IMG/VR virus record: IMGVR_UViG_3300037067_027627
Source: a virus
Taxonomy: Duplodnaviria; Heunggongvirae; Uroviricota; Caudoviricetes
DNA length: 64,000 nucleotides
Reading direction: 5' to 3' (one strand)
The position numbers and the translations under genes are program-made. Shown here piece after piece: positions 22,331 through 41,830 of this stretch (the first letter of the stretch is position 1; each line of letters starts with the position of its first letter). The notes beneath the pieces were generated by a model. It was not told the DNA's origin. It ran no database searches and saw only the letters and a program-made list of their open reading frames with translations.

Positions 22331-22370
22331 CCGTGAACGGGGCTCGCACCCGTTTGCCTTCTGGTCACGG
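22331..22370 (-). repeat. Intergenic tRNA-like minihelix repeat, copy 1
   Basis: Plus strand CCGTGAACGGGGCTCGCACCCGTTTGCCTTCTGGTCACGG. It lies 9 nt after the stop codon of the 22380..23117 gene. Confidence 0.85.
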
Positions 22371-22379
22371 TTGTTCTGA

Positions 22380-23117
22380 TTACGGTGCTTGTTTTTTCTT
22401 TTGCGGAGACACATGCACGTTGTGGTCTACAGTCAGGTTCTGACCGGTAGGATCTGCCGCAGCTGCATACACTGCTGCGTCGGCAACGGTTCCTGTGGAA
22501 CGGTATGCTGTTGCAGCCATACCATATGCCCTTCCAACAGACTGTCCTCCTGCACGATGATGCCCGAAACAGATTGTATTCGCACTTCCAAGCCCAATAC
22601 TGATCCCATCGGCAAATGCTGTCGGAGAAGCAGACAGATATAGGAATGCCCACTTGAAATCTTTGGTGCACTTCTCAATCGTGTTCAGGATCTGTGTGCG
22701 GGTGTATTCTTTACTGTCGTTCTCGTTACCATCGGTAAGAATAACAACCATAACCCGCGCAGGATCTGCCCCGGGTTTCTCGTAACGTTCACGCACGGTT
22801 GCAATTGCACGACCTATCGCGTCATACAGAGCTGTCCTTCCTCTCGGAACGTATGTGGATCGATCCAATGGTTTCACATCTGCGATCGGAGTCCCGTCAT
22901 GCGCTACAATATACTCGTGGTCAAACAGAACCATCGTGAGGAATGCTGCGCCTTGCAACCCCTGTTGTTCACTCAGGAACGTATTGAATCCTCCGATTGC
23001 ATCGTCCCTGATGTTACTCATTGACCCAGACCTGTCAAGAATACATACGAATTCCGTAGGTACATCTGTTGATGTCTGGATCTGTTTTCCCTTTTTAGAC
23101 TGCTGTTTTTTTGACAT
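22380..23117 (-). CDS. von Willebrand factor A (vWA) domain protein
   Basis: MIDAS motif VCILDRSGSMSN (DxSxS), plus downstream T and D residues. Confidence 0.6.
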   Translation of the reverse strand: MSKKQQSKKGKQIQTSTDVPTEFVCILDRSGSMSNIRDDAIGGFNTFLSEQQGLQGAAFLTMVLFDHEYIVAHDGTPIADVKPLDRSTYVPRGRTALYDAIGRAIATVRERYEKPGADPARVMVVILTDGNENDSKEYTRTQILNTIEKCTKDFKWAFLYLSASPTAFADGISIGLGSANTICFGHHRAGGQSVGRAYGMAATAYRSTGTVADAAVYAAAADPTGQNLTVDHNVHVSPQKKKQAP

Positions 23118-23138
23118 ACAAACCCCTGTAAAAATAGA

Positions 23139-23543
23139 TTAGATTTTGAAGATAACGTTCTTCACCGGGGTATCATGCGATGTCGCATCCTCGCGCCGCT
23201 TGCGCAGGGTATCTGCAACCTGCGATTTAAGTCGCTTCCCAGCTTCCTCAACCTGCTTCGCACGGTACGCTTCCTGATTGATCCTGTGCAATCTGTTCCC
23301 GGCGATTTTAATCGTGTTCATGATCTTGAAGATCACTGCCGATTTATACTCCCCGTTAACGCACAGGGTTGTCCCATCAAATAATCTGATGGTTTTGTGA
23401 GAGTCCGTTAGCCAGAACGAAGGATTCGACTCCACATACTGTGGATTCATCTTATCCTTTGTAAGTACTCCGCGAATACTCAACACACGATACATCCGGA
23501 CACCGTTCCTGAGGAACTCTTGTGTCTTGATCCGAACTGTCAT
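23139..23543 (-). CDS. Hypothetical protein
   Basis: 134-aa ORF with SD GGAGGAAAC upstream. Confidence 0.45.
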   Translation of the reverse strand: MTVRIKTQEFLRNGVRMYRVLSIRGVLTKDKMNPQYVESNPSFWLTDSHKTIRLFDGTTLCVNGEYKSAVIFKIMNTIKIAGNRLHRINQEAYRAKQVEEAGKRLKSQVADTLRKRREDATSHDTPVKNVIFKI

Positions 23544-23788
23544 GTTTTTGTTTCCTCCATTTTACTTTACTTAATCCCCTCTTCGGGGAAACGTGAGTAG
23601 CGGGGGATCGAACCCCGCGCAAGTGCTGCCACACTTTTCCTGATGGTGATTCATCCAGACGTACAGAAATCCGGAAGCGGATGCCCTGTTCGGGAAACAT
23701 CCCATTATCCTTCCCACTCACACAATCACGACCCGGACGGCAAGCTCCGGTTCACGCCTCGGGGTTGTACGATCCTCAATCGTGAAAT

Positions 23789-23828
23789 GTCGTGAACGGG
23801 GCTCGCACCCGTTTGCCGCTCGACACGA
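23789..23828 (-). repeat. Intergenic tRNA-like minihelix repeat, copy 2; outer stem variant TCGTG/CACGA
   Basis: GTCGTGAACGGGGCTCGCACCCGTTTGCCGCTCGACACGAC. Compensatory change in the outer stem. Lies directly after the stop of 23838..24044. Confidence 0.8.
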
Positions 23829-23837
23829 CGGATAATC

Positions 23838-24044
23838 TCATCTAAGTATTATCACCGCTAACACAACAACTACTACAAATAATACGAATAGTGCTGGCAA
23901 CCAAACCAACCACCACGGCATGATAATGTTAAATCCATAAAACAATACAAGAAGCGCAATCTGCGCAACAAACAGCAATCCTACTGTAAAGTTAGACATG
24001 TTAGTTTCACTTCTGTTCGCAACATCCGCAAGCACCGTGTGCAT
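23838..24044 (-). CDS. Small membrane protein
   Basis: 68 aa, almost entirely hydrophobic. Confidence 0.4.
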   Translation of the reverse strand: MHTVLADVANRSETNMSNFTVGLLFVAQIALLVLFYGFNIIMPWWLVWLPALFVLFVVVVVLAVIILR

Positions 24045-24237
24045 GCGTGTTCATATACGCAATGTGATCTGCAAGATCATCGGCAATTGTTTGTGTGTAC
24101 CACGGTTTGATCAATGCAAGAATAGATTCGATCTGCTCTTCGGTGAGATCGTTGATCTCGATGTTGTACCAAACCGTATCTCTTCCGATACCATCTGGGT
24201 TGTGACATTCCGTTCTGTTATAATTCATTTGTACCAC
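24007..24237 (-). CDS. Hypothetical protein
   Basis: 76-aa ORF. Confidence 0.35.
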   Translation of the reverse strand: MVQMNYNRTECHNPDGIGRDTVWYNIEINDLTEEQIESILALIKPWYTQTIADDLADHIAYMNTHAHGACGCCEQK

Positions 24238-24417
24238 TTTAAAGTTATATGTGCGTGATATTAATCTTTTCCCATATCTTCCAACAAATCATCCAAGGGT
24301 TTTCGGTCGCCATATCTTTTCCCAGCGTTGCAGACAAAGCGATCGGTGAATAGATGCGATTCATACCATAGCAATGTCTGTATAATAGCAACAACTGGGC
24401 ATGTCATACGCCAACAC

Positions 24418-24789
24418 CTACTGATCTTCTTTTCTACGTAACTGGTCGCACGTTCTGAATCGTTTTACTGACAAAACCTGCCCCCGCCCGTCTCGTTTGG
24501 CTCCATTTGCACCTTTGGTATCTGGTGAAATAAAATCCGGTCGCGCCATTATCTGCGTCACCTGACTCGGGACTATGTACCACGTGTCTTTTGATGGCGA
24601 TGGAATGATATCATCTGCGGGCTCATAATATACCCGCTGGATAATTGGATTATCATCTATGGTTTTAATAACATCGTCCATCATTTCCAGCCGTAAAACT
24701 CGCCCATCCGGAGGATATTCATAAACACTTCCATCGGATCGTTCAACGATAATCGGATGCGAATTCAAGTTTATAATACGCGTGCTCAT
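24418..24789 (-). CDS. Hypothetical protein
   Basis: 123-aa ORF. Confidence 0.45.
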   Translation of the reverse strand: MSTRIINLNSHPIIVERSDGSVYEYPPDGRVLRLEMMDDVIKTIDDNPIIQRVYYEPADDIIPSPSKDTWYIVPSQVTQIMARPDFISPDTKGANGAKRDGRGQVLSVKRFRTCDQLRRKEDQ

Positions 24790-24815
24790 CGAATAACACC
24801 ATCAAACAGCGAGGA

Positions 24816-25139
24816 TTAATCCTCGCTGCCATCATCTTCGTCTTCGTCGTCTTCGTCGTCATCCTCATCGTCGTCTTCGTCCTCGCATTCGTCCTCGTCT
24901 TCGTCGTCACAAGGGCAATCGTCTTCGGGCTGTGTGAAATCAAGAATCTTGTCTTTCACGACCTCAACGTTGAAAATGTCTGATAATGCAACAGAGTCAT
25001 CCTCAATCAAATCGGTCATTGCTTCGTCGGCGATATCAATTGCTTCGCGCGGGTTCTTTGCTTCGACAATGGTAAATGCCGAATATTTTACTACGAACCT
25101 CTTTAGTACTGGTGCTTTACGTTTTCCCATAAGTATCAC
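24816..25139 (-). CDS. Hypothetical protein with a poly-acidic (D/E) C-terminal tail
   Basis: C-terminus PCDDEDEDECEDEDDDEDDDEDDEDEDDGSED. Confidence 0.45.
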   Translation of the reverse strand: MILMGKRKAPVLKRFVVKYSAFTIVEAKNPREAIDIADEAMTDLIEDDSVALSDIFNVEVVKDKILDFTQPEDDCPCDDEDEDECEDEDDDEDDDEDDEDEDDGSED

Positions 25140-25504
25140 TTCGTATTGGATTGTGTTTTTTCCACTGTGTCAAATATTCGCATCACATCATTTATATCTG
25201 TTTCGGTGAGCTTACAATCGCGAATCAGGAGATCTCCAAGTGAAGATAAGATCCGCTGACCATTCGTAAGAACAGCGCTCGTTGTTTTCGGGTCTACCTG
25301 CCCCTCGGATATCCCACGTAATGCCCCGGTAAGAGCAAAGATGTCAACAAGAAGTGCCTTTGCAGTGTTGTGATCGGCGCAGAAAATCGTAGGAACAGGG
25401 TTAAGAGTCTGCGCAACAGGATCCGGGTCTGATTGCACGTCTGTTTTTGATTTCTCAAGTACAATCTCGAAGTCGTTTTGTTTGTCCTTGTTTGTATCTG
25501 CCAT
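25136..25504 (-). CDS. Hypothetical protein
   Basis: 122-aa ORF. Confidence 0.45.
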   Translation of the reverse strand: MADTNKDKQNDFEIVLEKSKTDVQSDPDPVAQTLNPVPTIFCADHNTAKALLVDIFALTGALRGISEGQVDPKTTSAVLTNGQRILSSLGDLLIRDCKLTETDINDVMRIFDTVEKTQSNTK

Positions 25505-25505
25505 G

Positions 25506-25703
25506 TTATATTACCTCTAGTTTCTTCTGTGTCTTTGTTATTATACGTTTGTTTTCCCCGATACGCGTAAACGATCCTTCGACCAGTTCACTGATGCGAT
25601 GGCAATCCGGGCATTCTACCGTTTCGTGAATATCACTCATTGATTTCTTGGTAAATACCCCATGTTCACGGCATTTGTATATGCATGTAAATCGCAGTTT
25701 CAA
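25506..25703 (-). CDS. Zinc-ribbon protein
   Basis: CIYKCREHG...CPDCHR. Confidence 0.4.
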   Translation of the reverse strand: MKLRFTCIYKCREHGVFTKKSMSDIHETVECPDCHRISELVEGSFTRIGENKRIITKTQKKLEVI

Positions 25704-25728
25704 ATGGCAACACCACCAATAAAATTAG

Positions 25729-26169
25729 TTATGAGTATTCGTCCCCATACACTTCCTTAATATAAGGATCCGGATCCTCGATGCACATTACTTTTTTCTT
25801 CTCGGGTATCGTCATGTTCTGGTCTTCCATAATACTCTTACGTAAAGACTCCCGTGAAGATTTTAATTGCGTAAGTATAGACATCCGCGCAACTATTTTC
25901 TTTGCACCATTGTTAATTTCACCCTGCGATATCTCCCCGCTAAGAGAGAATACCGAAGATAATGAATCGTAATTCGCAATTGCTGCTGTGATTGCTGCTA
26001 GTTCACTACTTGTAAACCGATCATTACCAGTAACAATTGACTCCAACCCTCGCGCAGCCAGTTCAATTTCCGACAACATATCAACTAAATCACTTCGTAA
26101 CATCCCGAAAGTTACAACTAGATCACCATCGATATCGTCATCATCGTTTGAAAACCGTCCGGATACCAT
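25729..26169 (-). CDS. Hypothetical protein
   Basis: 146-aa ORF. Confidence 0.45.
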   Translation of the reverse strand: MVSGRFSNDDDDIDGDLVVTFGMLRSDLVDMLSEIELAARGLESIVTGNDRFTSSELAAITAAIANYDSLSSVFSLSGEISQGEINNGAKKIVARMSILTQLKSSRESLRKSIMEDQNMTIPEKKKVMCIEDPDPYIKEVYGDEYS

Positions 26170-26238
26170 GATCTGCCAAATACCTATTCCATTATCAATT
26201 CATATATAGGTTTCGGAACGACGGTGTGAGGGATAAAT

Positions 26239-26412: not shown

Positions 26413-26435
26413 GATTTTACCTCACATCCGGTTTC

Positions 26436-26895: not shown

Positions 26896-26896
26896 G

Positions 26897-27247
26897 TTAT
26901 GATTCCTTCTTTGGATCACGTTCTTCGATAATCGCCGATAGTAAGATGAGGTAATTTCGGGCATCCGAAACTCGTTGTGAGAACCCTTCTGTAGCTCCAG
27001 TCCCGCCCCACCCCAGCCGTGTTCCGGGTCTCATCGCAGCCTTGGCAATAGCTTGGATATGCTTCATCATAAAAACAAGGCATACTTCTTCCGGGGTGAT
27101 CCCAAGTTGATTCGCGGTTGTCTTGAAGTTAACCAATACATCAGTATCGGCAGCATATTCAGATCGCTTTGTTATGAGGAGACTACGTTCAGCCCCCTCG
27201 AACATATTGTAGAGATTTTCAAAAGATTGTTTATCCATGATCTTCAC
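26897..27247 (-). CDS. Hypothetical protein
   Basis: 116-aa ORF. Confidence 0.45.
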   Translation of the reverse strand: MKIMDKQSFENLYNMFEGAERSLLITKRSEYAADTDVLVNFKTTANQLGITPEEVCLVFMMKHIQAIAKAAMRPGTRLGWGGTGATEGFSQRVSDARNYLILLSAIIEERDPKKES

Positions 27248-28674
27248 ACCTGCGCGTTTCTCCGTACCTGATCAAACGTCCAGTCACGGATAATACTCCC
27301 GTTCAGGAACACCGTGTTCAGGACATTATATCCCGGGACACATACTTCGTTTACAGTTGCATAGTGACCATCCTCACACGTGAGGATAAGCCGCCCGCGT
27401 TTGGAGGCTTTTCGCGCGTCTGATACCGGGCGTTTGTAAACGTCGTGCCATACCCCGTCAATATCGATCGCACTGCACTTGAATGCAAAACTCTGGGTAT
27501 CACGATTGACTTTCTGGAGAAGAGCACCGCCCATCCCGAACACGATATTGGACGGGGCGAACCGATACTTTCCGACAACCTCGTATAAAATCTGACTGAT
27601 CATATCGAGGCTGATGTAATCGCCATAGATAACACTGACGTGTGGATCGAGAACACGATACCCGCGTTCATTAACAGTCCCACCGTAGTGCTTCCACAAA
27701 AGTTCGAGAACCTGCAACGACATCCAAACCGGGTCGCCACTGTCTGGGCGGAGGACAACTTTGCCTTTACGCGCGATGATTTGGTCTTTCAGTAACTCAC
27801 CGAAATATTTGTCTGCTGCACGAATTGCATCGTATGAATCAATAACAACAGATGCAATCGCATCGTCCGGAGCACGACCGATGATCTCACGGTACGCTTC
27901 CTCCTCGTTCCCTTCCCCGTAACTGGTCACAGTTGAATGTTCTGCCGCATAAACGGAAAGGAGAATCGGATCGCGACTCATCTTGGCACTGTAATACTTG
28001 TTTGCATACCGTTTCGCAAGTAGATTGTCGCTCCCGGCGAAGTTCACTAAGTGTGCCATCCCGCCAATACCTGCGGTTTCTACAGATGATGCGCCACGGA
28101 ACCCAAAATCGTTCAGGTGCACAATCGATGCATGTTCACCGGCTTTTACTGCCCACCCTTCGATCACTTTACGAACTTCGCGACTCATTGTGGCTACGGT
28201 AATAGGATACCATACCAATTCAAGAAGTCCCTCGTAGAAGTTTGGAAGCCAGAAAGAATCGGGATCCGTGTTCTCAACGGTCATTAACACATTTTTGACC
28301 GGAACGACCATACCCTCTGGTACAGTCTTGATTTGCAGCGGAAGTTTCCCATCAAGATCGTTCGCAATGTGGCGAAAACCCTTCTCGTTGAAAAACTTAA
28401 ACCCGAATATCTCTTCGCTATCTGCAATAGCCTCGTCAATGGTTTCGTTTGTGATAACCTTCCCGGCGAGATATTTCTTCAAGTAATATTGAGTGCCGAA
28501 GCATACCGTTTCCGGGAACATACCCCCGCGACTCTCTAAATACGAGAACACAGTTCTGGTATTCTTTGGATACTGCATCCAGTGAGTTAATTTATATGCG
28601 TCAGTCGCTTCTTCCATGATGCAATCTGCCAAGATTGCCGCAGTGATAGGATTTTCTTTATTTACTTTGTCCAC
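27244..28674 (-). CDS. Nicotinamide phosphoribosyltransferase (NAMPT / NadV-like)
   Basis: 476 aa. The motifs GIGGMAHLVNFAGSDN and NIVFGMGGALLQ match NAMPT-family signatures; the overall length also fits. Confidence 0.7.
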   Translation of the reverse strand: MDKVNKENPITAAILADCIMEEATDAYKLTHWMQYPKNTRTVFSYLESRGGMFPETVCFGTQYYLKKYLAGKVITNETIDEAIADSEEIFGFKFFNEKGFRHIANDLDGKLPLQIKTVPEGMVVPVKNVLMTVENTDPDSFWLPNFYEGLLELVWYPITVATMSREVRKVIEGWAVKAGEHASIVHLNDFGFRGASSVETAGIGGMAHLVNFAGSDNLLAKRYANKYYSAKMSRDPILLSVYAAEHSTVTSYGEGNEEEAYREIIGRAPDDAIASVVIDSYDAIRAADKYFGELLKDQIIARKGKVVLRPDSGDPVWMSLQVLELLWKHYGGTVNERGYRVLDPHVSVIYGDYISLDMISQILYEVVGKYRFAPSNIVFGMGGALLQKVNRDTQSFAFKCSAIDIDGVWHDVYKRPVSDARKASKRGRLILTCEDGHYATVNEVCVPGYNVLNTVFLNGSIIRDWTFDQVRRNAQV

Positions 28675-28678
28675 TGTT

Positions 28679-28930: not shown

Positions 28931-29135
28931 CCACCTGCAATGCAGGTAATATGAACGGCAGGGAATCGACCCCCGCGCATTTACTCGCTTGTGGTGTTCG
29001 CGAATGCAAACGCGACTTTCCGTGCTTTCACCTTTCGTTCATACCCAACGTTCCCGGATACAAACTCCCCACGGTCTAGGAGTGTCTGAACAGTTTTTGC
29101 AGCAACGTGTACACTTCTTTCTGAAACGTTGGATG

Positions 29136-29176
29136 CCGTGAACGGGGCTTGCACCCGTTCAGCCGCTAGTTCACGG
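29136..29176 (-). repeat. Intergenic tRNA-like minihelix repeat, copy 3; T-loop variant GCTTGCA
   Basis: CCGTGAACGGGGCTTGCACCCGTTCAGCCGCTAGTTCACGG. It abuts the stop of 29177..29632 with a 0-nt gap. Confidence 0.8.
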
Positions 29177-29632
29177 TTACTTGGAGTTCATCATATCTTC
29201 CCATGCGCCATCCGGAATCGTTTCGAGTTTTTTAATAAACCCCAACTCATTCTGTGTTACGTCGCATGGCTGCGGGACTTGATCTATTCCCGGCAATCTC
29301 TCCATCATTTCGCAATCCTTTTCAAACGTAATCGTGTGCCCGTTTAGTTCAACAAGAATAACCCTGTTGAATACCTGTTGCGCAATGAACCAGTTAAACG
29401 TGCGAAAAACGGTTTCACACATCCCTTCTCCAAGGATCCCACCAGCGAAAACAGTGTGTGTTCCGGAATGGAGTATTCTTGTTGTTGCACTGAGGACTGC
29501 AAGAACCGCATTCCTGTCATGGCGATCTATCGTCATCATCCCTTCCACGGTTATTCCGTTACTGCGTGCCGTTATCATTCGTCCCACATTCCCGTTCCAC
29601 TTTGAATTTCGCATCGAGATACATTGTCGCAA
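29177..29632 (-). CDS. Hypothetical protein
   Basis: 151-aa ORF. Confidence 0.45.
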   Translation of the reverse strand: MRQCISMRNSKWNGNVGRMITARSNGITVEGMMTIDRHDRNAVLAVLSATTRILHSGTHTVFAGGILGEGMCETVFRTFNWFIAQQVFNRVILVELNGHTITFEKDCEMMERLPGIDQVPQPCDVTQNELGFIKKLETIPDGAWEDMMNSK

Positions 29633-31230: not shown

Positions 31231-31428
31231 ATATCCCACCCGGGAATGTGAATGCCGGGAATCGAACCCGGTAAATTCGTGACGTGAATCACGCCCGCGT
31301 GTTACCATTACACTCTGCTTCCACACCCACAGTGCCCGTTATTCCCCATCCATCTCCGTTCGGTCTTGGAGTACGGTTAATAGGGTATTGATCTGTTGAA
31401 CATCGATAAGTCAGACCCACTGTGGATT

Positions 31429-31468
31429 CCGTGAACGGGGCTCGCACCCATTCGATTTCTGGTCACGG
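31429..31468 (-). repeat. Intergenic tRNA-like minihelix repeat, copy 4
   Basis: CCGTGAACGGGGCTCGCACCCATTCGATTTCTGGTCACGG. The G-to-A change gives a U-G wobble only in the minus-strand RNA. Lies 10 nt after the stop of 31479..32504. Confidence 0.8.
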
Positions 31469-31478
31469 ATATGAAAAA

Positions 31479-33004: not shown

Positions 33005-33042
33005 GCATTTCACCTGTTTTGCCCGCCAACACAGACGGGAAA

Positions 33043-33082
33043 CCGTTAACGGGGCTCGCACCCGTTTGCCTTCTGGTAACGG
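33043..33082 (-). repeat. Intergenic tRNA-like minihelix repeat, copy 5; compensatory outer-stem variant CCGTTA/TAACGG
   Basis: CCGTTAACGGGGCTCGCACCCGTTTGCCTTCTGGTAACGG. The paired double substitution preserves the stem. The variant also creates the stop codon of 33046..33333. Confidence 0.85.
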
Positions 33083-33333
33083 TTGGGTAACCAATTCTTG
33101 TTCACCCATCGCTTACAATTTATGCTCCCGGCTCTTACAAACCCTTCTCTCTTAAGCCACGCTGTAATAGTTTCGTTGAACAATCCTCCGGTTTCCAATT
33201 GTAGTTCGTCACGGTAGACTGCACCGAATTTGTCAATCAACTTTGATGTTGCAGACGTTAGAACCTCGTGGTGAATATTAACCTTCAACTGTGATTCCGG
33301 AATTCTCTTGTAAACCATAGATTCACTCCTCAT
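33046..33333 (-). CDS. Hypothetical protein whose last ~13 codons lie in repeat copy 5
   Basis: 95 aa. The C-terminus ...RYQKANGCEPR is the translated repeat. Confidence 0.45.
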   Translation of the reverse strand: MRSESMVYKRIPESQLKVNIHHEVLTSATSKLIDKFGAVYRDELQLETGGLFNETITAWLKREGFVRAGSINCKRWVNKNWLPNRYQKANGCEPR

Positions 33334-34091: not shown

Positions 34092-35589
34092 TTATCTCAC
34101 CGCGTTGATGTCAATCCTCTCGACTTCATCGACAAGTGTAGTTCCATTCATCTCGTAAAGATTCAGGAACCGCAGAGAGTTGTCTGCCCACCCGCCAACT
34201 GTGCAGTGCTTCCGCTCGCCCTCTGGGAACTGCGTGGTTCCGTAGTGCGCCAGATCGAACGTGTACACGAACGGGTTGTTTCCGGTCTTGATACGGAACG
34301 ACCTGAAAGCATCGTAGCAACTTGGTCGCCCGTATCCCTGCTCGTCCGTGAAGAAGATAATCCGGTCTACATCAGGCATATCCTTTGCGACTGCGCTAAT
34401 ACACAGTCCGGTGTGGGTTGATCCGCCGGTTCTATCTCCAGCATCACGTATCTTGTCTACGTTTGTGAGGATACTGTCCCGTGGGTTTGCCCGAACAATC
34501 GACACGCTTGTACCGAATGCGTATACCTTGCAATCATCAGCGCGCGATGCAACCATAGCTCCGAAGACGTTTCCGATATCCTTGTGAGTTACCATAGACT
34601 TCTCGTGGATACTACTGTTCATCGATCCGCTGTTATCACAGAATACCGCAGTTTTCCCCGGGATGCAAGTCATATTCTCTGCGCTAACCGCCATTGCGTC
34701 TGACAGTGCCGCCTTGATCTTCTCTACCCCGTTGTAGTTAAGGCTCTCGATCTGTCTGTATGCAGTGTAGTACTGCACCGGGATCATTCGTGATCTACGC
34801 ACACGATCTTCATCTGCAACTTCTGCACAAACATCACTGATGTTGACACCGCGCTTCATAAGGTTGCGAAGGTTTCGGATGATACCAAGGTATCCCATTG
34901 CATCAAGGATGTGTGTCCAGTTCTTCTTTGTGGAACCGTTGACCATGATATAGTTCTCCCATGTCTCCGGAAGAGGCAGAGTGCCACCGATAATGTTCTG
35001 GAACATTGTCTCCTGCCCATCGCGTGGCTTTGGGTGTGTCAGGAACATAACGTCCCGTGGCTTGATCATCATGTCATCCTTCGTATACTTGGCAAACTGG
35101 TAACTGTCGAAGCTCACGAACGCCTTCGCAAGACCGCGCTTGATCGCCATTGGCAGGTAAGTTCTCTCCATCTTGTACTGCTTGTTCAGCATCATACAAT
35201 ATGCAAGAAGCTCTGTCATGTCGTCCACACGCTTGATCGACTTCGCAACGTAGTTCGAACCATTCGGGATGTCCTTTGCCCCTGCGTAGATCGCCTCAGC
35301 GAGAATCACCGTTGTGGGTGTTCTCATGTTGAACCGGTTACGCGTGTACCAAGCACCTTTGAGTGCGAGTTCCGGGTCATCCGATCTCGAAATGTTCCGG
35401 ATAAGATCGACAAATCTCTTGTTCGATGCCTCTCCCGACTCGTAAAACGTATTCATCTTCGCAACGGTTGTTGCCGCGCGCAGGATGAACTCCAGCTTCT
35501 CGGATGGCTTGAATGCCTCTCCACCCTCGTAGTTCACGGTGACCTTTGCAGCCACCTTTCTCTTTCCAACTGTCTTGTTAAACTGCATG
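34092..35589 (-). CDS. rsr: Ro60-like TROVE-domain protein with a C-terminal vWA domain (Rsr ortholog)
   Basis: ~500 aa, alpha-helical repeat N-terminal region plus C-terminal MIDAS FCDNSGSM; this architecture and length match Ro60/Rsr. Start placed at MQFNK, which has SD GAGGTGA 6 nt upstream. Confidence 0.65.
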
Positions 35590-35633: not shown

Positions 35634-35686
35634 GCGGAATGGCGGGGTTGCACCGCAGCGCGCAAGGCTTCAAGCCCTTATTCCGC
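35634..35686 (-). ncRNA. tRNA-like mini-RNA: acceptor-like stem GCGGAAU/AUUCCGC enclosing a T-arm-like hairpin (UGCAACC loop) and a second hairpin
   Basis: Perfect 7-bp inverted repeat closes two internal hairpins. Same strand as rsr and 45 nt upstream of it. Confidence 0.35.
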
Positions 35687-35877
35687 ATTGATCGAAAGTG
35701 GGGTTATCATGTGGATCTGGTTTAATATTTGTTTCAGATCGTTTGTGACACTTCGGGAAACGACCAAACCCGGACGGAGTTGAACCGCCTAATTTTAGTT
35801 CCGTAGACTAATGTGTAACCGAAGTAACCATTTCCAATCGCATCCCCACCAAATTTACATGAGACCTGAATGGAACG

Positions 35878-35980: not shown

Positions 35981-35996
35981 TAAACATAATAGCAAT

Positions 35997-36090: not shown

Positions 36091-36154
36091 TATTGCATTG
36101 TGTTCTTGTTATTACTTATGTATGTTCGATTCTGTATATATAACTTGTCACAAA

Positions 36155-36418: not shown

Positions 36419-36671
36419 TCTTTTCACCTCGTAAAATTCAATGTGCCTAACACGGGGGTATGAGCCCCGCGTGTTGTAATGGCGATTCGAATCCTGTTTG
36501 GACTCAGGACTCCGACTTACGTGTATGATGTCCCCGCGTTTAACGCAGGGAAATTCCGGATACGACGTTTGACCATCGTATCCGGTACCTGATATGAAGT
36601 AAATCCGATCCTAACGTGTCGGGCGCGGGTCAATAGTGTCAACCACCACCCCAAGTCAATACTTGGGAAGA

Positions 36672-36712
36672 CCGTGAACGGGGCTCGCACCCGTCATGCC
36701 GCTAGTCCACGG
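36672..36712 (-). repeat. Intergenic tRNA-like minihelix repeat, copy 6
   Basis: CCGTGAACGGGGCTCGCACCCGTCATGCCGCTAGTCCACGG. Lies 5 nt after the stop of 36718..36987. Confidence 0.8.
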
Positions 36713-36717
36713 TTGCC

Positions 36718-36987: not shown

Positions 36988-37001
36988 TTCTCACCTCTCT
37001 G

Positions 37002-38080: not shown

Positions 38081-38399
38081 ATCCTAAGTCTGGAACCCAC
38101 CCCTCCGGGCAAATGGATTTGACTTTCTCCCTTGCTTCCTCTTCATCTCGGTACTTCTTTACCTCGAATGAAAACGATTTCATCACCATTTTCTTTCCGA
38201 CAAGATCCAGATATCGCACTGTCATCTTTTTTACGTTCGAGCTTGCAAGACGATTCATCGTAGCGTTCACGAATTGTTCGCGCGTGAGCTCGATATCGAC
38301 AAACGTAACTCCAGATGTTTTATCTTCTATGGTGATGCGTATTGAATCGTCATAAGACGACAATATACTTATTCGCCCATCAATATCTTTAATAGTCAC
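37998..38399 (-). CDS. Hypothetical protein
   Basis: 133-aa ORF. Overlaps the upstream gene by ~80 nt, so the true start may be later. Confidence 0.4.
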   Translation of the reverse strand: MTIKDIDGRISILSSYDDSIRITIEDKTSGVTFVDIELTREQFVNATMNRLASSNVKKMTVRYLDLVGKKMVMKSFSFEVKKYRDEEEAREKVKSICPEGWVPDLGFGSQGSFYTKGDKVFARTTIRQWVDDD

Positions 38400-38943
38400 A
38401 CTCTATCCCCGCCTTGTTGCATACATCACGCCAGAATCCCTTAAACCCAATTTTGGATTTAAAGTGTGGATCTGCTGCAATCATTCTTTTGATGATCTCG
38501 TTGCTTTCCCAGAGTTCGGATCTGATCTTTGATGCTGCAAAATCGAAATCCGCCATATCCGGCATAACCATCATCCACTTGTGATGATATACTGGGGAGG
38601 AATCCCCGGAATATTCACGAATGGATACCTCGCTTGTTTTTGGTTTGTAGTTTAAAGACGCATACAGAACCGGCTCGCGGTATTTGCGCCACCCTTCTAC
38701 ATAAAGGAATGAAATCGCATCGATAACCCCACCATGCACGGTAAGTTTTACCAGTTGGTAGTCATATGGATCCGGAATCTTATGCGTTTTTACCCGGGCA
38801 AGAATTCTTGTGAGTCTTACGAACTCATCGAAGAACGGCTTTGGTTCCAGATAAATGGTCGATTCCTTGTGGATATACCAGTTGTCAACAACCACCTTCC
38901 CACGGAACGACTTCATCCTTTCAATTGACTTGATTTGTACCAT
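38389..38943 (-). CDS. Hypothetical protein
   Basis: 184-aa ORF. Confidence 0.45.
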   Translation of the reverse strand: MVQIKSIERMKSFRGKVVVDNWYIHKESTIYLEPKPFFDEFVRLTRILARVKTHKIPDPYDYQLVKLTVHGGVIDAISFLYVEGWRKYREPVLYASLNYKPKTSEVSIREYSGDSSPVYHHKWMMVMPDMADFDFAASKIRSELWESNEIIKRMIAADPHFKSKIGFKGFWRDVCNKAGIECDY

Positions 38944-39080
38944 ACCTTCTTACCCCCGATTTCAATACAGAACTCTTTACTCGAACCATACCCGCGAACA
39001 TCTTCTATGGTCACGTATCCCTGTGTTGGGGAAAATAACCTGTCGCCTTTCTTGAATGTGACAATTTCATGCTTAGTCAT
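38913..39080 (-). CDS. Small hypothetical protein (~55 aa)
   Basis: Start placed at MTKHEIV after the SD GGAGGA. The longer ORF-track version reads through repeat copy 7. Confidence 0.35.
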   Translation of the reverse strand: MTKHEIVTFKKGDRLFSPTQGYVTIEDVRGYGSSKEFCIEIGGKKVWYKSSQLKG

Positions 39081-39117
39081 TTGTCCTCCATTCTTCAACA
39101 TTGCCCAAACGGGCAGA

Positions 39118-39156
39118 CCGTGAACGGGGCTCGCACCCGTTTGCCGCTCGACACGG
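39118..39156 (-). repeat. Intergenic tRNA-like minihelix repeat, copy 7
   Basis: CCGTGAACGGGGCTCGCACCCGTTTGCCGCTCGACACGG. Its extended upstream flank TTCAACATTGCCCAAACGGGCAGA is shared with copy 8. Confidence 0.8.
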
Positions 39157-39177
39157 AATCCTAGATGACGTGCGTTA

Positions 39178-39381
39178 TTATTTACCTTCTGCATTTTTAA
39201 CCAGTGCACTAAGAGCAGACCCCACCACAATCATGGACAATGCCATTACCCACAATACCCACATGAACGTTGTTGCATTGATCGTATGCATTATCAAAAA
39301 TGAATTACAGTAAGATGATGTAATCCCGACAAACAACAAAATCGTTCCGATAACTTTGACTCCGGTGCCGTTCATTATCAT
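39178..39381 (-). CDS. Small membrane protein
   Basis: 67 aa with two hydrophobic helices. Confidence 0.4.
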   Translation of the reverse strand: MIMNGTGVKVIGTILLFVGITSSYCNSFLIMHTINATTFMWVLWVMALSMIVVGSALSALVKNAEGK

Positions 39382-39722
39382 TATGTTGGCCTCCCTTTGA
39401 TCCGGGTTGAATCTTCTTCATCCATTTGCTTGATCTTATCCGCACGTTCCTGAGCCTCACGTGCCGACATCATGATCGACTCTTCGATCTCGTGAAGACC
39501 ATCCGCGCAATAATCAAGCGTTACGTTACACCGCTTTGCACGTTTGTCCCACAAAGTCATCGTTCCTTCAAACGTTGCCTTCACTTCTGAACAAGTTAAT
39601 GGTTTGCGGCAATGTGCGCAAACAGTGATCGGGGTTTCAGGAATAGGCATATCGTTTGCAATTGATACAATGTCACCCGGAAAATCCGGGTGCCATACGC
39701 CTTCTTTGTCGATAATTCCCAT
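39381..39722 (-). CDS. Hypothetical Cys-containing protein
   Basis: 113-aa ORF. Confidence 0.45.
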   Translation of the reverse strand: MGIIDKEGVWHPDFPGDIVSIANDMPIPETPITVCAHCRKPLTCSEVKATFEGTMTLWDKRAKRCNVTLDYCADGLHEIEESIMMSAREAQERADKIKQMDEEDSTRIKGRPT

Positions 39723-39725
39723 ACT

Positions 39726-40721
39726 CTACACCCGTATTTCCATGAGGAGAGCCTGCGATCTCTGAACAACATCATGCCCGTCAACAACCCGCAGAAACCG
39801 GTTTGCTTGCCAGTTCTGGGTCTTGCGGAATGGGTCAACATGGTTAACGACATCCACGACGCTGTTATAGAGTGCCCACGCGGTTCCTTTGAATCTTGCT
39901 AAGTCTGCCGATTTCTCAAACCGGTTCAGCACAATATCCTTCAGATACTGACGATTCGCCATGCGCCGCGCAGTGTCCCCAACTTCAGGAGCCGGGAAGA
40001 GATCATCCAAGAACTTCGTAACTTCATCAGCGTAAAGATTGATCGCGAGAAGTTTCTCGGCTGCTTCCGGGAATCCAGCGACATAATCATCCACCAGACC
40101 AAGAACCTGCTGAGCTTCCTTGACTTTGCTCTGAATATCCCCGGTGTGTTCAATGAAACACACGCGCTTCGCCCCACCGAGTGCCATCGTCAATGTATTT
40201 TGACAAACAACACGCGTTGTTACCATTGCGGCAATCATAGAAGATTTGCCATCAAACGAGTTTACGAAGCACACATACGGGGCGATCTTATCTCCGAATA
40301 TATCGAAGTCCTTGTTTGACTTTGCAAGAATCCACGTTTTACATGCTCCGTTGTATGGGGATATGAGAACACCGCCGGTCTCATACCGCACATCTCCGCC
40401 CCCGAGCAGTTCATCTGTGAATGCGAACGCCTCGCTATTCTGAACAATGCGGTAATCATCGGAGACAATCCCAAGAATACGGAGATCTGTATCCCTGACG
40501 ACTGCGAACTGATGCGGGATCTTTTTCCTTACATCTACCCCAAGAGTTGCTGCACTGAAATCTGCTGGGATACACGCCTCGAACGGGACAAACTTTGCCT
40601 TAAAGTTCATACCGCCCATCTCCATCGCGACCGTACTATTCGGGGCTTCGGAAAGAACATTCCCAAGACCATGCCATGCCGGTTTTTGATACAAGAAACA
40701 CTGTTCAATATCGTGTGACAT
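39726..40721 (-). CDS. Hypothetical 331-aa protein, possibly an abundant structural protein
   Basis: Start at MSHDIEQ after AAGGTGGAAAAAGA-ATG. The ORF-track N-terminus is a TTG-initiated read-through of the conserved leader. No fold recognised; the structural guess rests only on the strong conserved leader. Confidence 0.45.
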   Translation of the reverse strand: MSHDIEQCFLYQKPAWHGLGNVLSEAPNSTVAMEMGGMNFKAKFVPFEACIPADFSAATLGVDVRKKIPHQFAVVRDTDLRILGIVSDDYRIVQNSEAFAFTDELLGGGDVRYETGGVLISPYNGACKTWILAKSNKDFDIFGDKIAPYVCFVNSFDGKSSMIAAMVTTRVVCQNTLTMALGGAKRVCFIEHTGDIQSKVKEAQQVLGLVDDYVAGFPEAAEKLLAINLYADEVTKFLDDLFPAPEVGDTARRMANRQYLKDIVLNRFEKSADLARFKGTAWALYNSVVDVVNHVDPFRKTQNWQANRFLRVVDGHDVVQRSQALLMEIRV

Positions 40722-40757
40722 TCTTTTTCCACCTTCAACATTGCCCAAACGGGCAGA

Positions 40758-40797
40758 CCGTGAACGGGGCTCGCACCCGTTCGCTTGCTAGTCACGG
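40758..40797 (-). repeat. Intergenic tRNA-like minihelix repeat, copy 8
   Basis: CCGTGAACGGGGCTCGCACCCGTTCGCTTGCTAGTCACGG. Abuts the stop codon of 40798..41226. Confidence 0.8.
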
Positions 40798-41226
40798 TTA
40801 TGGATTGTTTGATCCCCAAAGTTCATCGGTCACGGATACAAGAATCTTCCGTACAACTTCCCGATCCACGTGTTCGTATAAAATCATGCGGTGTTCTCCA
40901 CATAGTTGCGCGTCAGCTTCGTATTGGTCGCATGCAGGTTTCTGATAACCAAAGGCAAACCGCACGACTGCAACCCAGTATTGATTCTGATCCGGTTCGT
41001 GTGATAACGGTTTAAACCCCTGATGAATAAATCCACCCAGATATTCACTCTTGTGAAAAAACGCTTCGTCGCCATCCTGCGCCAGTAACCGGTATCTTCC
41101 GTCTGGGAGTCTTCGCAGTAACGTTGCAGTACCCGGTACTTCTCCGGTGTTGGTTGTAATTAATATCCCATTATCAGACTTTTCGTTTTCCGTCATATCC
41201 GGGTTCCCCCATTTTTGTATGATCAC
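40798..41226 (-). CDS. Hypothetical protein
   Basis: 142-aa ORF. Confidence 0.45.
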   Translation of the reverse strand: MIIQKWGNPDMTENEKSDNGILITTNTGEVPGTATLLRRLPDGRYRLLAQDGDEAFFHKSEYLGGFIHQGFKPLSHEPDQNQYWVAVVRFAFGYQKPACDQYEADAQLCGEHRMILYEHVDREVVRKILVSVTDELWGSNNP

Positions 41227-41440
41227 GCCCGATGTGCCAAGATCGGCAGTTGCTACAAAAGTATGCGTTGAAATCGTAACCGGTCTTAACTTTCATTGCA
41301 GATGCTGCTTCTTTCGCCATTACCTCATCCACATGCCGGACTTTGTTGCCGCACGATCGTGCTCTCTTCAAAGCTTCCCAAAAAACGCGCCCGCCATATG
41401 TAATTTTCTGAGGCTTGTTTTTAGTCTTCATGAAAATCAC
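41174..41440 (-). CDS. Hypothetical Cys-containing protein
   Basis: 88 aa. Overlaps the previous ORF, so the true start is possibly later. Confidence 0.35.
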   Translation of the reverse strand: MIFMKTKNKPQKITYGGRVFWEALKRARSCGNKVRHVDEVMAKEAASAMKVKTGYDFNAYFCSNCRSWHIGRDHTKMGEPGYDGKRKV

Positions 41441-41446
41441 AACGGG

Positions 41447-41749
41447 TTAATCGTTTACAGTTACCAGTCCGTGCCGCTTCAGCACGTCTTGAAGTTCATT
41501 TGTGAACTGAACATCCGGAATACGATCTTTCTTGTTTCCGCCATCAATCGCGTTGATGTGTTTCCCTGTTGTAGTGCCCCACACGTTCACAGATACTCTG
41601 GGCAGTTTCCCGGGTTCACAGAATGCAACAACCGTATTGTATGAGAACCAAAGCGACAGTTCCCCAATATCAACACGTTGCGCATGCACTCCATAATTAT
41701 CATTTGCGTAATTCGCATACCCGCGAATCTTAATGTTTCCAACTTGCAT
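41447..41749 (-). CDS. Hypothetical protein
   Basis: 100 aa, preceded by the conserved leader GAAGGTGAAAAAAGA-ATG. Confidence 0.45.
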   Translation of the reverse strand: MQVGNIKIRGYANYANDNYGVHAQRVDIGELSLWFSYNTVVAFCEPGKLPRVSVNVWGTTTGKHINAIDGGNKKDRIPDVQFTNELQDVLKRHGLVTVND

Positions 41750-41794
41750 TCTTTTTTCACCTTCGTTTAGTTCAAATTACCGGATTCCCGGAAC

Positions 41795-41830
41795 ACCGAT
41801 CCCCGACTCGCACGGGTTGTATGCGTTATT
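41795..41830 (-). repeat. Degenerate ninth copy of the repeat: T-arm-like hairpin CCCG-UGCGAGU-CGGG plus the conserved leader
   Basis: Minus strand ACCCGTGCGAGTCGGGG followed by ...CGAAGGTGAAAAAAGAATG. The outer stem is not conserved. Confidence 0.4.

Follow-up and report, generated by a model that had tools for sequence, protein, structure and literature searches.

The question raised by this locus is why an element of about 42 bases recurs, almost unchanged, between the genes of a large uncultured phage. The DNA analysed is a 64-kb window of that phage, and its relatives are metagenomic phage contigs (L001, L008, L028, L097, L098 and others). The core of the repeat, ACGGGGCTCGCACCCGT on the plus strand, is found eight times with at most one mismatch, at 22337, 23796, 29142, 31435, 33049, 36678, 39124 and 40764. 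All eight lie on one strand, and the chance expectation is 0 (100 shuffles). Covariance models built from the copies return exactly 8 matches in the 64 kb, scoring 59-71 bits, with the next best below 16 bits. The sense of all eight elements is that of the minus-strand genes, and all are situated at gene boundaries. This bears out the original observation of eight same-orientation copies at such sites, and its three alleles of the bulge (TTCTGG, GCTCGA and GCTAGT) are as described. The degenerate ninth copy placed at about 41800 is without the outer stem and fails both covariance models.

The spacing to the neighbouring genes is less regular than first claimed. A stop codon precedes the element by -1 to 20 nt in seven of the eight copies, rather than by 0-21 nt throughout; the upstream ORF 33318-33046 enters copy 5 and ends at a TAA in the 3' strand of the element. 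Of the six copies first said to have a start codon no more than about 40 nt away, the number falls to four (1, 5, 7 and 8, at 35-37 nt), so that there are four long leaders, not two (245, 216, 197 and 252 nt for copies 2, 3, 4 and 6). The real tRNAs of the phage occupy the same kind of location as the copies. The copies are:

22330..22371, minus strand: copy 1, minihelix from A1 to U72, ACCGUGA-CCAGAAGGCAA-ACGGG-UGCGAGC-CCCGU-UCACGGU, 70.6 bits; upstream ORF stop 8 nt before, ATG 22294 35 nt after.
22315..22328, minus strand: hairpin 2 of copy 1, UGCCC-UUUG-GGGCG from U74, then SD AGGUGA and ATG 22294.
23789..23829, minus strand: copy 2, minihelix with compensated outer stem GUCGUG/CACGAC, 65.4 bits; 245-nt leader to ATG 23543.
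29135..29177, minus strand: copy 3, minihelix with loop UGCAAGC, 63.1 bits; stop UAA overlaps A1; 216-nt leader to ATG 28918.
31428..31469, minus strand: copy 4, minihelix with inner stem AUGGG/CCCGU and U-A as outer pair 1-72, 62.4 bits.
33042..33083, minus strand: copy 5, minihelix with compensated outer stem ACCGUUA/UAACGGU, 66.9 bits; ATG 33004 37 nt after.
36671..36713, minus strand: copy 6, minihelix with a G-U pair at the end of the outer stem, 59.9 bits; hairpin UCCCAAGU/ACUUGGGG, then a 252-nt leader.
39117..39157, minus strand: copy 7, minihelix, 63.5 bits; hairpin 2 at 39115-39102, SD GGAGG, ATG 39080.
40757..40798, minus strand: copy 8, minihelix, 64.5 bits; stop UAA overlaps A1; hairpin 2 at 40755-40742, SD AGGUGG, ATG 40721 of the DUF932 gene.
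41790..41822, minus strand: degenerate relative, the 'ninth copy', hairpin CCCG-UGCGAGU-CGGG, hairpin CCGGGAAUCCGG, SD, ATG 41749; without outer stem, below the model threshold.

Orthologues of copy 8 stand upstream of DUF932 in L097, L098 and L103, and L104 has one at the 5' end of the contig, which is truncated there.

The comparative data support a fold in which, in minus-sense RNA, a 7-bp outer stem stacks onto a 5-bp inner stem capped by a 7-nt loop. In a total of 27 copies, drawn from the window and the related contigs, 94.3% of the cells are paired, as against 26-44% in slid controls. Six of the 12 pairs are changed on both sides (15 cells), which none of 500 shuffles reaches, and RNAalifold recovers both helices unaided. 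The covariation, first read from two or three variant copies, thus holds in the larger set; the paired changes of copy 5 (CCGTTA/TAACGG) and copy 2 (TCGTG/CACGA) were confirmed, as was the G-to-A change of copy 4 that makes a G-U pair in the minus-sense RNA only. Folding energies of the single sequences are not better than those of shuffled ones (z -2.0 to +1.0), so the case for the structure rests on covariation and not on stability. G-U and A-C mismatches occur in the copies at about the same rate, and wobble pairs alone therefore do not fix the strand.

That the element mimics the acceptor stem and T arm of a tRNA is likewise supported. The stack of 7 and 5 bp with its 7-nt loop has the geometry of the tRNA acceptor/T-arm helix, and a linker of 10-12 nt stands where the D and anticodon arms would be. 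In the window copies the outer stem runs from A1 to U72 (ACCGUGA/UCACGGU) and the loop reads U54 G55 C56 R57 A58; U54, C56 and A58 are conserved family-wide. Relatives have canonical T loops closed by a G53-C61 pair (UUCGAGC at L098:5941, UUCAACU at L098:5312 and L098:7849). The G55 of the window loop UGCGAGC, an oddity, is common to 5 of the 15 phage tRNAs, among whose T loops are those of Glu (UGCAAAU), Asp (UGCGACU), His (UGCAACU) and Leu(gag) (UGCGAAU), in agreement with the loop match proposed earlier. The third base after CACGG, which is position 74 for a 7-bp stem, is U in all 27 copies, and positions 73 and 75 vary. None of the 15 tRNA genes of the phage encodes CCA; 13 have U74 and the other two U75. 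The Rfam tRNA model leaves the copies unscored even at E <= 10, and they carry neither an anticodon nor a known identity element such as G3:U70.

The same architecture was found by a scan blind to sequence, which looks for T arms whose following 7-nt strand has a complement at most 160 nt upstream. It gave 28 matches on the minus strand of the window, as against one on the plus strand and 0.27 for shuffled sequence; the 28 comprise 14 tRNAs, the 8 copies and another 6 tRNA-like elements. On the related contigs, with inserts up to 160 nt, 13 of 14 matches are on the gene strand, the remaining one being the copy of L028, where the orientation of the locus is not set by a gene match. Most of the related-contig matches show N73 with U at position 74 or 75, as well as a hairpin, SD site and start codon. 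Mini and larger families unrelated in sequence thus share the layout of the eight repeats. Together with the covariation, the canonical T loops of relatives, the G55 loop and the U74/CCA-less context, they bear out the minihelix reading. The tRNA-like elements of the window, copies apart, are:

1377..1435, minus strand: 59-nt element adjoining tRNA-Arg, GUCCUGA...UCGGGAC, T arm CCGGG-UUCGAUU-CCCGG, N73 A, UU.
15192..15224, minus strand: intergenic minihelix, insert of 2 nt, CGCGUGA-CC-GUGGG-GUCAAAC-CCUGU-UCACGUU; ORFs on either side 15232-15837 and 14783-15175.
23594..23720, minus strand: larger element within the leader of copy 2, acceptor-like stem of 7 bp and T arm CGGGG-UUCGAUC-CCCCG with a 96-nt insert; downstream N73, U-rich trailer, hairpin CCCC/GGGG at 23589-23575, SD, ATG 23543.
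28952..29041, minus strand: larger element within the leader of copy 3, acceptor-like stem and T-arm-like CGGGG-GUCGAUU-CCCUG with a 59-nt insert; downstream hairpin ACCUGC/GCAGGU, SD, ATG 28918.
31248..31330, minus strand: 83-nt element in the copy-4 leader, acceptor-like stem GUGGGUG...CAUUCAC, T arm CCGGG-UUCGAUU-CCCGG; then N73 A, UU, CCC/GGG hairpin, ATG 31230.
35634..35686, minus strand: sequence-unrelated mini element just upstream of the Ro60/TROVE gene (ATG 35588), GCGGAAU-22 nt-UGCGG-UGCAACC-CCGCC-AUUCCGC-U-UU.
35766..35856, minus strand: 91-nt element upstream of Ro60, acceptor-like AAAUUUG...CGGGUUU, T arm GGCGG-UUCAACU-CCGUC.

The element at 23594..23720 is called by neither ARAGORN nor Rfam at normal thresholds; the copy-2 leader is conserved in L008. 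L001 has a mini element at the place equivalent to 31248..31330, and the copy-6 leader is partially conserved after L098:5312. A mechanical ORF, 36084-35734, overlaps the element at 35766..35856.

The host is probably bacterial. The DUF932 homologs in the phage collection are all in phages of bacteria and no archaeal signs were found, which leaves the earlier attribution to an archaeal virus unsupported. Besides its 15 tRNAs, the phage encodes Ro60/TROVE, RlaP and an RNA ligase, and relatives retain Ro60 in the same region.

Punctuation of polycistronic RNA by RNase P / RNase Z fits these observations best, and the balance of probability leans modestly towards the elements being tRNA-mimic signals at which RNase P and/or RNase Z split long messages into mRNAs. 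The elements would be transcribed within long multi-gene RNAs, and the tRNA-maturation enzymes of the host would take them for tRNA precursors. Cleavage at the 5' edge would fall to RNase P, and RNase Z would cut past the discriminator-like N73, right before the invariant U74, the same type of cut that the CCA-less tRNAs of the phage would need. Gene blocks of 1.4-5.3 kb would be separated, and the downstream mRNA would start at hairpin 2 or 1-3 nt before it. This hairpin usually begins at U74 or a few bases later; in four of the window's eight copies, and in many related ones, the SD site and start codon follow it closely, and it could shield the new 5' end of the mRNA. In B. subtilis, RNase Z cleaves precursors that lack CCA behind the discriminator; CCA blocks the enzyme, and a U no more than 2 nt downstream stimulates it about 200-fold (PMC10100781, PMC1874595). 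The enzyme is poor on substrates with long 5' extensions (PMC1874595), and RNase P would therefore have to cut first, on a substrate lacking CCA. Many copies have U74 in the stem of hairpin 2, a pairing that might hamper RNase Z. The complete lack of copies in L101 also counts against this reading.

An unlikely alternative is that the excised minihelices are the product, small tRNA-mimic RNAs that may be CCA-tagged, with mRNA separation as a side effect. They might be decoys or sponges for binders of the acceptor/T-arm elbow (tRNA-targeting defence nucleases, modification enzymes, EF-Tu), or partners of the Ro60/RNA-repair proteins of the phage. The heavy investment of the phage in tRNA and RNA biology would suit such a role, as would the retention of Ro60 by relatives, the two tRNA-like elements directly upstream of it, and the high dose of one small RNA that eight near-identical copies would supply. 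The phage-specific G55 loop is also retained in the copies, and their linker may imitate the D loop: all eight U55 minis whose insert is 8 nt or longer have GG in it, and most G55 minis have AG. The gene-boundary sites, about half of them fused to a hairpin-SD-ATG leader, however, fit a role in cis. The unrelated families share architecture only, which argues against one specific partner in trans; anticodon and known identity elements are absent, and neither a Y RNA-type Ro60-binding helix nor an Rfam Y RNA match was found.

Comparably doubtful is a generic structured RNA that involves no tRNA enzymes (an mRNA stabiliser at the 3' or 5' end, a cistron insulator or a phage-protein site), its likeness to tRNA being the leftover of a decayed tRNA. 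The more distant L102 has perfect 14-bp hairpins at equivalent places, made from the same 3' strand (AUCGUGAACGGGGC-GGU-GCCCCGUUCACGAU), without a T loop or a U at 74/75 and immediately ahead of SD and ATG; at least one lineage can therefore do without the tRNA-like features, which also counts against tRNA punctuation. The most conserved part of the element, the 23-nt block ACGGGUGCGAGCCCCGUUCACGG, is identical in several phages, which suits sequence-specific protein binding, and hairpin 2 adjoins the SD site. A leftover, however, would not hold U54, C56, A58 and U74 across 27 copies amid covariation of the stems, nor would unrelated sequences rebuild the same tRNA-like layout, and a plain stabiliser needs neither the 7 + 5 bp geometry nor a tRNA-type 3' context.

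Transcription terminators or attenuators closing gene blocks are very improbable. The copies are G+C-rich hairpins right after stop codons, and in copies 7 and 8 the CAAACGGG of the element can alternatively pair with the CCCGUUUG of hairpin 2, but this pairing is limited to some copies, a one-sided 10-12-nt bulge interrupts the stem, no U run follows it, and the conservation of T loop and U74 would go unexplained. A scan of 20 kb placed no intrinsic terminator and no sigma-70-like promoter on any of the copies, and neither type of site is enriched over shuffles there.

Some viruses use tRNA-like sequences as attP (PMC8707807), the 23-bp block is conserved and in one orientation ahead of genes, and the varying gene order around the copies among relatives is consistent with recombination at repeats, but a role in DNA (phage promoter, operator, recombination/att site, mobile miniature element or CRISPR-repeat mimic) has very little probability, given compensatory changes unexpected for a double-stranded site, G-U pairs that are mismatches in DNA, the lack of a -10/-35 match, the mere 35-37 nt to ATG, already taken up by hairpin 2 and an SD site, the single orientation of all copies, and flanks that on inspection for a mobile-element target showed no target-site duplications. 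A CRISPR repeat is ruled out because the core is never arrayed in the metagenome scan and its 22-nt degenerate form gave one unrelated genome match.

No report of a tRNA-mimic punctuation system in phages was found. The phage elements may be likened, as putative tRNA-mimic processing signals, to the t-elements of organelles.

The core of the repeat, ACGGGGCTCGCACCCGT on the plus strand, matches the window eight times when at most one mismatch is allowed, always on a single strand, and no match was obtained in 100 dinucleotide-preserving shuffles. The positions are:

22337, 23796, 29142, 31435, 33049, 36678, 39124 and 40764, one strand, cores of the eight copies

A repeat finder returned the same eight copies as 37-43-nt families. 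As minus-strand RNA a copy reads ACCGUGA-(10-12 nt)-ACGGG-UGCGAGC-CCCGU-UCACGGU, which is the sense of the genes, since all long ORFs between 14 and 64 kb are on the minus strand. With a covariance model seeded with 15 copies, the same eight and no others scored 60-71 bits in the window, against 12.7 bits for the best remaining match, and a second, broader covariance model found the same eight. The eight same-orientation copies of the original prediction were thus recovered by the core scan, the repeat finder and both models. The degenerate ninth copy that it placed at ~41800 is not a member of the family: the site carries a CCCG-UGCGAGU-CGGG hairpin, a second hairpin, a Shine-Dalgarno (SD) sequence and an ATG at 41749, has no outer stem and fails both covariance models.

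The fold consists of a 7-bp stem stacked on a 5-bp stem with a 7-nt loop, the 3' strands being contiguous, which is the arrangement of an acceptor-like stem on a T arm. In an alignment of 27 copies, 94.3% of the cells are standard pairs and changes on both sides are found at 6 of the 12 pairs (15 cells). None of 500 shuffles reached the observed values, and pairing falls to 26-44% when the partner is slid by 1-3 columns. RNAalifold, unaided, gave the same two helices. Compensated outer stems occur in the window, CCGUUA/UAACGG in copy 5 and GUCGUG/CACGAC in copy 2, and in related metagenomic contigs: ACCGAGA/UCUCGGU (L095), ACCGCGC/GCGCGGU (L097) and ACUGUG/CACAGU (L098:7849, contig and position). 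Compensated inner stems are GCGGG/CCCGC (L001) and UCGGG/CCCGA (L098, L104). The paired changes in copies 2 and 5, from which the structure had originally been argued, therefore hold and are extended to 27 copies. Single-sequence folding energies were no better than those of shuffles (z-scores near 0), so that the structural evidence is comparative and not thermodynamic. Wobble counts were dropped as a strand indicator, G-U and A-C being about equally frequent. The repeat is real and is a structured RNA. In copies 7 and 8 (39102-39157 and 40742-40798), CAAACGGG, comprising the linker end and the inner 5' strand, could pair instead with its complement CCCGUUUG in the small hairpin after the stem (hairpin 2), an option that the other copies do not have.

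The T arm is recognizable in its sequence. The motif GGTTCRANYCC, taken as used in PMC1920247, occurs exactly in related copies (GGGTTCGAGCCCC, CGGGTTCAACTCCCG), and the window copies carry GGGTGCGAGCCCC, the variant with G at position 55 of the T loop (tRNA-style numbering). Canonical T loops closed by G-C are found in relatives: ACGGG-UUCGAGC-CCCGC at L098:5941, and GCGGG-UUCAACU-CCCGC at L098:5312 and L098:7849. U54, C56 and A58 are conserved family-wide, and position 57 is a purine. Five tRNAs of the phage have G55 T loops (Glu UGCAAAU, Asp UGCGACU, His UGCAACU, Leu(gag) UGCGAAU and a fifth, CGCAACU), and the match to the phage's own tRNAs noticed at the outset was correct, the G55 loop being common to the copies and these five.

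The copies are not canonical tRNAs; the cloverleaf is absent and the linker is just 10-12 nt long. ARAGORN called 14 tRNAs in the window and Rfam RF00005 13, 15 of them distinct, and neither called any of the eight copies, even at E <= 10. Gathering-score matches to Rfam in the window are tRNAs only, and nothing in Rfam matches over the copies at E <= 10. A relaxed ARAGORN search with introns 'finds' intron-containing tRNAs in the leaders (the DNA between a copy and the next ATG); these models were left unused because they are full of mismatches.

None of the 15 phage tRNA genes (470-11097, minus strand) encodes CCA; the base is U at position 74 in 13 and at position 75 in two, and several begin with A, C or U, not G. 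In the copies the base two after the 7-bp stem, U74, which follows the discriminator-like N73, is U in 27 of 27, and the neighbouring bases vary. RNase Z of B. subtilis cuts CCA-less precursors after the discriminator; a CCA blocks it, and a U in the next 2 nt downstream stimulates it ~200-fold (PMC10100781, PMC1874595). The acceptor-stem/T-arm geometry first proposed is upheld by the covariation, the T loops and the 3' context. The copies are a mimic of the tRNA acceptor and T arm, tuned to the phage's own tRNAs.

The covariation between positions 18 and 55 of the phage tRNAs is clean: each of the ten U55 tRNAs carries GG in its D loop, and each of the five G55 tRNAs CAG. The latter are:

1219-1291, minus strand, G55/CAG tRNA
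1623-1694, minus strand, G55/CAG tRNA
2157-2227, minus strand, G55/CAG tRNA
2568-2638, minus strand, G55/CAG tRNA
10623-10704, minus strand, G55/CAG tRNA

The tRNA at 2568-2638 was found by Rfam only, not by ARAGORN, and has the anticodon loop CUCAUAA (anticodon CAU) and the T loop CGCAACU. Judged from the genes, A18 with G55 makes an unusual predicted tRNA elbow, in which position 55 could not be pseudouridylated. Among the short tRNA-like elements (minis), GG is present in the linker of all eight U55 minis with an insert of at least 8 nt; nearly all G55 minis have AG, and many also hold GG, as AGCGGC. These counts suggest that the linker may complete a tRNA-like elbow as a D-loop mimic, a lead only, because few elements are involved and the test is not a clean one.

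The copies are accompanied by other tRNA-like elements. A sequence-blind scan for a 5-bp stem closed by G-C with the loop [UG][UG]CRANN, followed by 7 nt with a complement at most 160 nt upstream, gave 28 minus-strand matches and one plus-strand match in the window, and 0.27 per shuffle. The 28 comprise 14 tRNAs, the eight copies and six further elements, listed here with one found by a looser scan:

23720-23594, minus strand, tRNA-like element in a long leader, just before the gene
29041-28952, minus strand, tRNA-like element in a long leader, just before the gene
31330-31248, minus strand, tRNA-like element in a long leader, just before the gene
35856-35766, minus strand, further tRNA-like element
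15224-15192, minus strand, further tRNA-like element
1435-1377, minus strand, further tRNA-like element
35686-35634, minus strand, tRNA-like mini from the looser scan, directly upstream of the Ro60 gene

The 64 kb thus hold the eight copies and at least seven other tRNA-like elements. In most of the added elements N73, a U at 74 or 75, a hairpin, an SD and an ATG follow in turn, and sequence-unrelated minis of the same layout are present on the gene strand of relatives (among them L095:8162, L095:12318, L097:11324, L102:2407, L103:1293 and L001:1391). In most copies hairpin 2 has 4-8 bp and begins at U74 or 1-3 nt further on. It usually opens with CCC or CCA, keeps its position while its sequence varies among copies, and in about half of them runs straight into the SD and start codon. 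A comparable hairpin follows U74 in the tRNAs Leu-taa, Gln and Asp.

Two further conserved pieces were seen near the copies. The leader following copy 4 contains a ~90-nt domain closed by CCACAGUG/CACUGUGG (~31335-31425, minus strand), the core of which, AAUACCCUAUUAACCGUACUCCAAGACCGAACGGAGAUGGAUGGGGAAUAACGGGCAC, is nearly identical in three phages (the window, L001:1292-1390 and L098:5990-6090). It matched no Rfam family and may be an unknown structured RNA or a cis-regulator. A ~200-nt block, AGAUUGAUCAUGGCAAA ... CCCCGUUCUCGG ... GAUGCACAUCYSCAAUACUAYAC ... CACACCGACAG, is conserved in the 1.1-kb gap upstream of the array (42250-42470, minus strand; L095:7730-7950; L103:830-1050). A fragment of the 3' strand of the element lies within this block, which may represent either a small ORF of 45 aa or a regulatory sequence.

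With gene starts picked by SD match, the gap between the preceding stop codon and the element is -1 to 20 nt in seven of the eight copies, as had been claimed for all (0-21 nt, intergenic). The exception is copy 5, where the reading frame of the upstream ORF extends into the element and ends at the TAA within the 3' strand. The start codon lies 35-37 nt after the stem in copies 1, 5, 7 and 8, and the remaining four have leaders of 197-252 nt. The earlier count of six copies close to a start codon was therefore wrong, and there are four long leaders instead of two; tRNA-like elements are found in three of the four. All eight copies are at a coding-region boundary on the gene strand, and the related copies found by the covariance model are all on the gene strand too. 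Within a block, neighbouring genes overlap or leave a gap of a few bases, so that the copies fill most of the sizeable gaps; the ~70-nt gaps at 26239-26169 and 36155-36084 have no element.

The window encodes NAMPT, an NMN-adenylyltransferase-like protein, SPFH, DUF932, a LAGLIDADG endonuclease, an integrase-like protein and 15 tRNAs, together with:

34092-35588, minus strand, Ro60/TROVE protein
19476-21244, minus strand, RlaP (RNA-repair nucleotidyltransferase family) adjoining RNA ligase

RlaP/RNA ligase, Ro60 and the tRNAs form an RNA-repair gene set. Two tRNA-like RNAs, at 35634-35686 and 35766-35856, lie upstream of the Ro60 gene, one of them overlapping a mechanical 116-aa ORF (36084-35734). 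Y RNAs, the partners of bacterial Ro60, have tRNA-like domains, and the two RNAs are therefore candidate Ro60 partners; Rfam gave no Y RNA match. Ro60 genes occur in the same region in the related contigs L101 and L102. NAMPT (27244-28674) and an HD phosphohydrolase/cytidylyltransferase-like protein (11242-12465), both on the minus strand, resemble a phage NAD+ salvage pair. The latter ORF was considered as a CCA-adding enzyme, and its domains are read as those of an NAD-salvage enzyme because it shares the genome with NAMPT. Searches across ~60 ORFs turned up neither an RNase P or RNase Z of the phage nor a CCA-adding enzyme. A repeat of TCTTCGTCG with a period of 9-12 nt lies in minus-strand coding sequence at 24823-24921, where it specifies a stretch of acidic residues on the gene strand. 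A 1461-aa protein (53022-57407, minus strand) belongs to no Pfam family and matched none of 50,697 phage records.

The virus had been taken for archaeal, which is unsupported. The DUF932 homologs in the phage collection are all from phages of bacteria, the SD sites are strong and of GAGGUGA type, and no archaeal-host signs were found; since nothing points to an archaeal host, a bacterial one is more likely. The DUF932 protein is identical, over its aligning 90%, to one on a 124.8-kb JGI contig, and nothing close was found in IMG/VR or the 50,697 phage records.

A metagenome scan with a 17-mer core matched 93 contigs, twelve of which have the full element; about 80 of the 93 have one match only, between unrelated flanks, and are put down to chance. 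Related copies are present in L001 (two), L008, L028, L041, L079 and L087, and window copies 6, 5 and 7 recur without change in L006, L033 and L071, respectively. Contigs reached through DUF932 homologs of 59-81% identity (L095-L100, L103 and L104) have diverged copies, which again lie in intergenic DNA and on the gene strand; in several relatives the copy upstream of DUF932 has kept its place. Scans of IMG/VR with the core, with a degenerate core and guided by the DUF932 protein gave no matches. The single GTDB match (L094, a high-GC MAG contig) lacks both stems and was set aside as chance or unrelated. L102 has perfect 14-bp palindromic hairpins at 7585-7615 and 8086-8116, comprising AUCGUGAACGGGGC-GGU-GCCCCGUUCACGAU and a compensated AUCUUG.../...CAAGAU version.

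Several explanations of the copies can be considered. Read from their sequence and setting, their job is, on balance, probably mRNA punctuation by the host tRNA-maturation enzymes. As tRNA-mimic processing signals, they would be cut by RNase P at the 5' edge and by RNase Z between N73 and U74, for which the tRNA-like context of these two bases gives indirect support, RNase P probably acting first because long 5' extensions hinder RNase Z (PMC1874595). The downstream mRNA would then start with hairpin 2. A 5'-terminal hairpin slows 5'-end-dependent decay, as in ompA and the Bacillus 5' stabilisers.

Three observations count against processing. In the more distant L102, hairpins made from the element's 3' strand but lacking both a T loop and U74 stand directly before the SD and ATG; L101 has no copies; and U74 is often paired in hairpin 2. 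Because of these, because Rfam does not match the copies as tRNAs, and because we infer both cleavage and polycistronic transcription, our confidence in punctuation is limited and four alternatives are kept. The copies could be trans-acting small RNAs. A joint reading gives 'armless' 42-nt tRNA mimics a dual role, in mRNA punctuation via RNase P/RNase Z and as abundant trans-acting small RNAs with the phage tRNA elbow (A18:G55, the linker as D-loop mimic), which might titrate a host tRNA-targeting defence or modification enzyme or be Y-RNA-like partners of the Ro60/RlaP/RNA-ligase module; we consider this combination improbable. The copies could also be a generic structured element. A terminator or attenuator is also kept, at low probability; as an intrinsic terminator the element is rejected, since the G+C-rich hairpin followed by a U run that one expects is lacking: the 3' tail is N-U-N followed by a hairpin, and intrinsic terminators, which in 22-42 kb are as numerous as in shuffles, match none of the eight copies. 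The last alternative kept is a site acting at the DNA level. As a promoter it is rejected, since none of the sigma-70-like sites (-35/-10, 16-18 bp spacing) is at any copy and they are not enriched in 22-42 kb (39 against 33.9 expected).

Other candidates were dismissed. RNase III sites of the T7/SP82 type need about two turns of double-stranded RNA, and the stack has 11-12 bp and is broken by a one-sided bulge. A CRISPR repeat mimic is contradicted by the 17-nt core, of which no contig in the metagenome scan has more than one, and by a 22-nt degenerate core, which gave one unrelated match in a scan of 185,579 species genomes. A REP/MITE-like mobile repeat, or the target sites of a mobile element against which the original prediction was to be checked, would not account for the single orientation, the absence of flanking direct repeats at the copies and the DUF932 copy position kept in relatives.

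The full-text literature searched, with most subscription journals outside its scope, holds no description of tRNA-like processing signals in phages; they were previously known from mitochondria and one archaeon, and the phage copies are of the t-element type in a new setting. If the proposed cuts are made, this phage group would use the host tRNA-maturation enzymes to divide its messages, which would explain the expression of a 20-kb gene array without recognisable promoters or terminators. The copies would then be a minimal natural substrate of RNase P and RNase Z, ~42 nt with a built-in U74 activator, and compact parts with which several RNAs could be freed from one transcript in bacteria. 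More generally, tRNA finders overlook a whole layer of tRNA-derived elements in phage genomes, and attention is drawn to the A18/G55 elbow variant in phage tRNAs.

Several known systems resemble the copies in part. Mycobacteriophage start-associated sequences and stoperators and the promoter-stem-loop cassettes (PeSL) of T4-type phages are short one-orientation repeats at gene boundaries, connected with cassette shuffling. Like the copies, some of them take in the ribosome-binding region, but they act at the DNA level, as protein-binding sites or as promoters and terminators, and neither fold like a tRNA nor show covariation. The RNase III hairpins of T7 (early and late) and Bacillus phage SP82 are intergenic ~20-bp duplexes in one orientation, with an internal loop and no T loop, which cut polycistronic phage RNA and leave protective ends. 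The copies share their conservation, intergenic position, internal loop and single orientation, and would likewise divide a phage transcript, but have just a 12-bp stack, and their conserved unpaired bases are the T loop and the 3' trailer. For RNase P an acceptor stem on a T stem-loop suffices, as in minihelices, the P1/P7 C4 RNA precursor and E. coli operon mRNAs. Those substrates are single or artificial and usually depend on a 3' CCA, whereas here a genome-wide family has no CCA. In Haloferax volcanii, t-elements upstream of 5S rRNA are substrates of RNase P and tRNase Z (PMC4326828 and its references 36 and 37). They too are prokaryotic tRNA-like signals for the two end-maturation enzymes, as proposed here; they are archaeal, chromosomal and few, not a repeated family punctuating protein genes, whereas the host of the phage is probably bacterial.

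The closest likeness is to plant mitochondrial t-elements, tRNA-like structures at mRNA ends (Forner et al. 2007, PMC1920247), and to mitochondrial tRNA punctuation. Both are non-canonical, with an acceptor-like stem and a conserved T arm, and both lie between or beside coding regions in long transcripts, which for the phage are presumed. In mitochondria the element edges are mRNA ends made by RNase P and RNase Z (PMC1920247), and real tRNAs serve alongside the t-elements, as the tRNAs of this phage also may. Cleavage and CCA addition have been demonstrated for the plant t-elements; cleavage of the phage copies is a proposal. The copies differ in their much smaller size, 41-43 nt, and their lack of D and anticodon arms, in forming a homogenised multi-copy family mostly with the G55 loop, and in being coupled, in a phage genome, to a downstream hairpin and, in about half, then to an SD.
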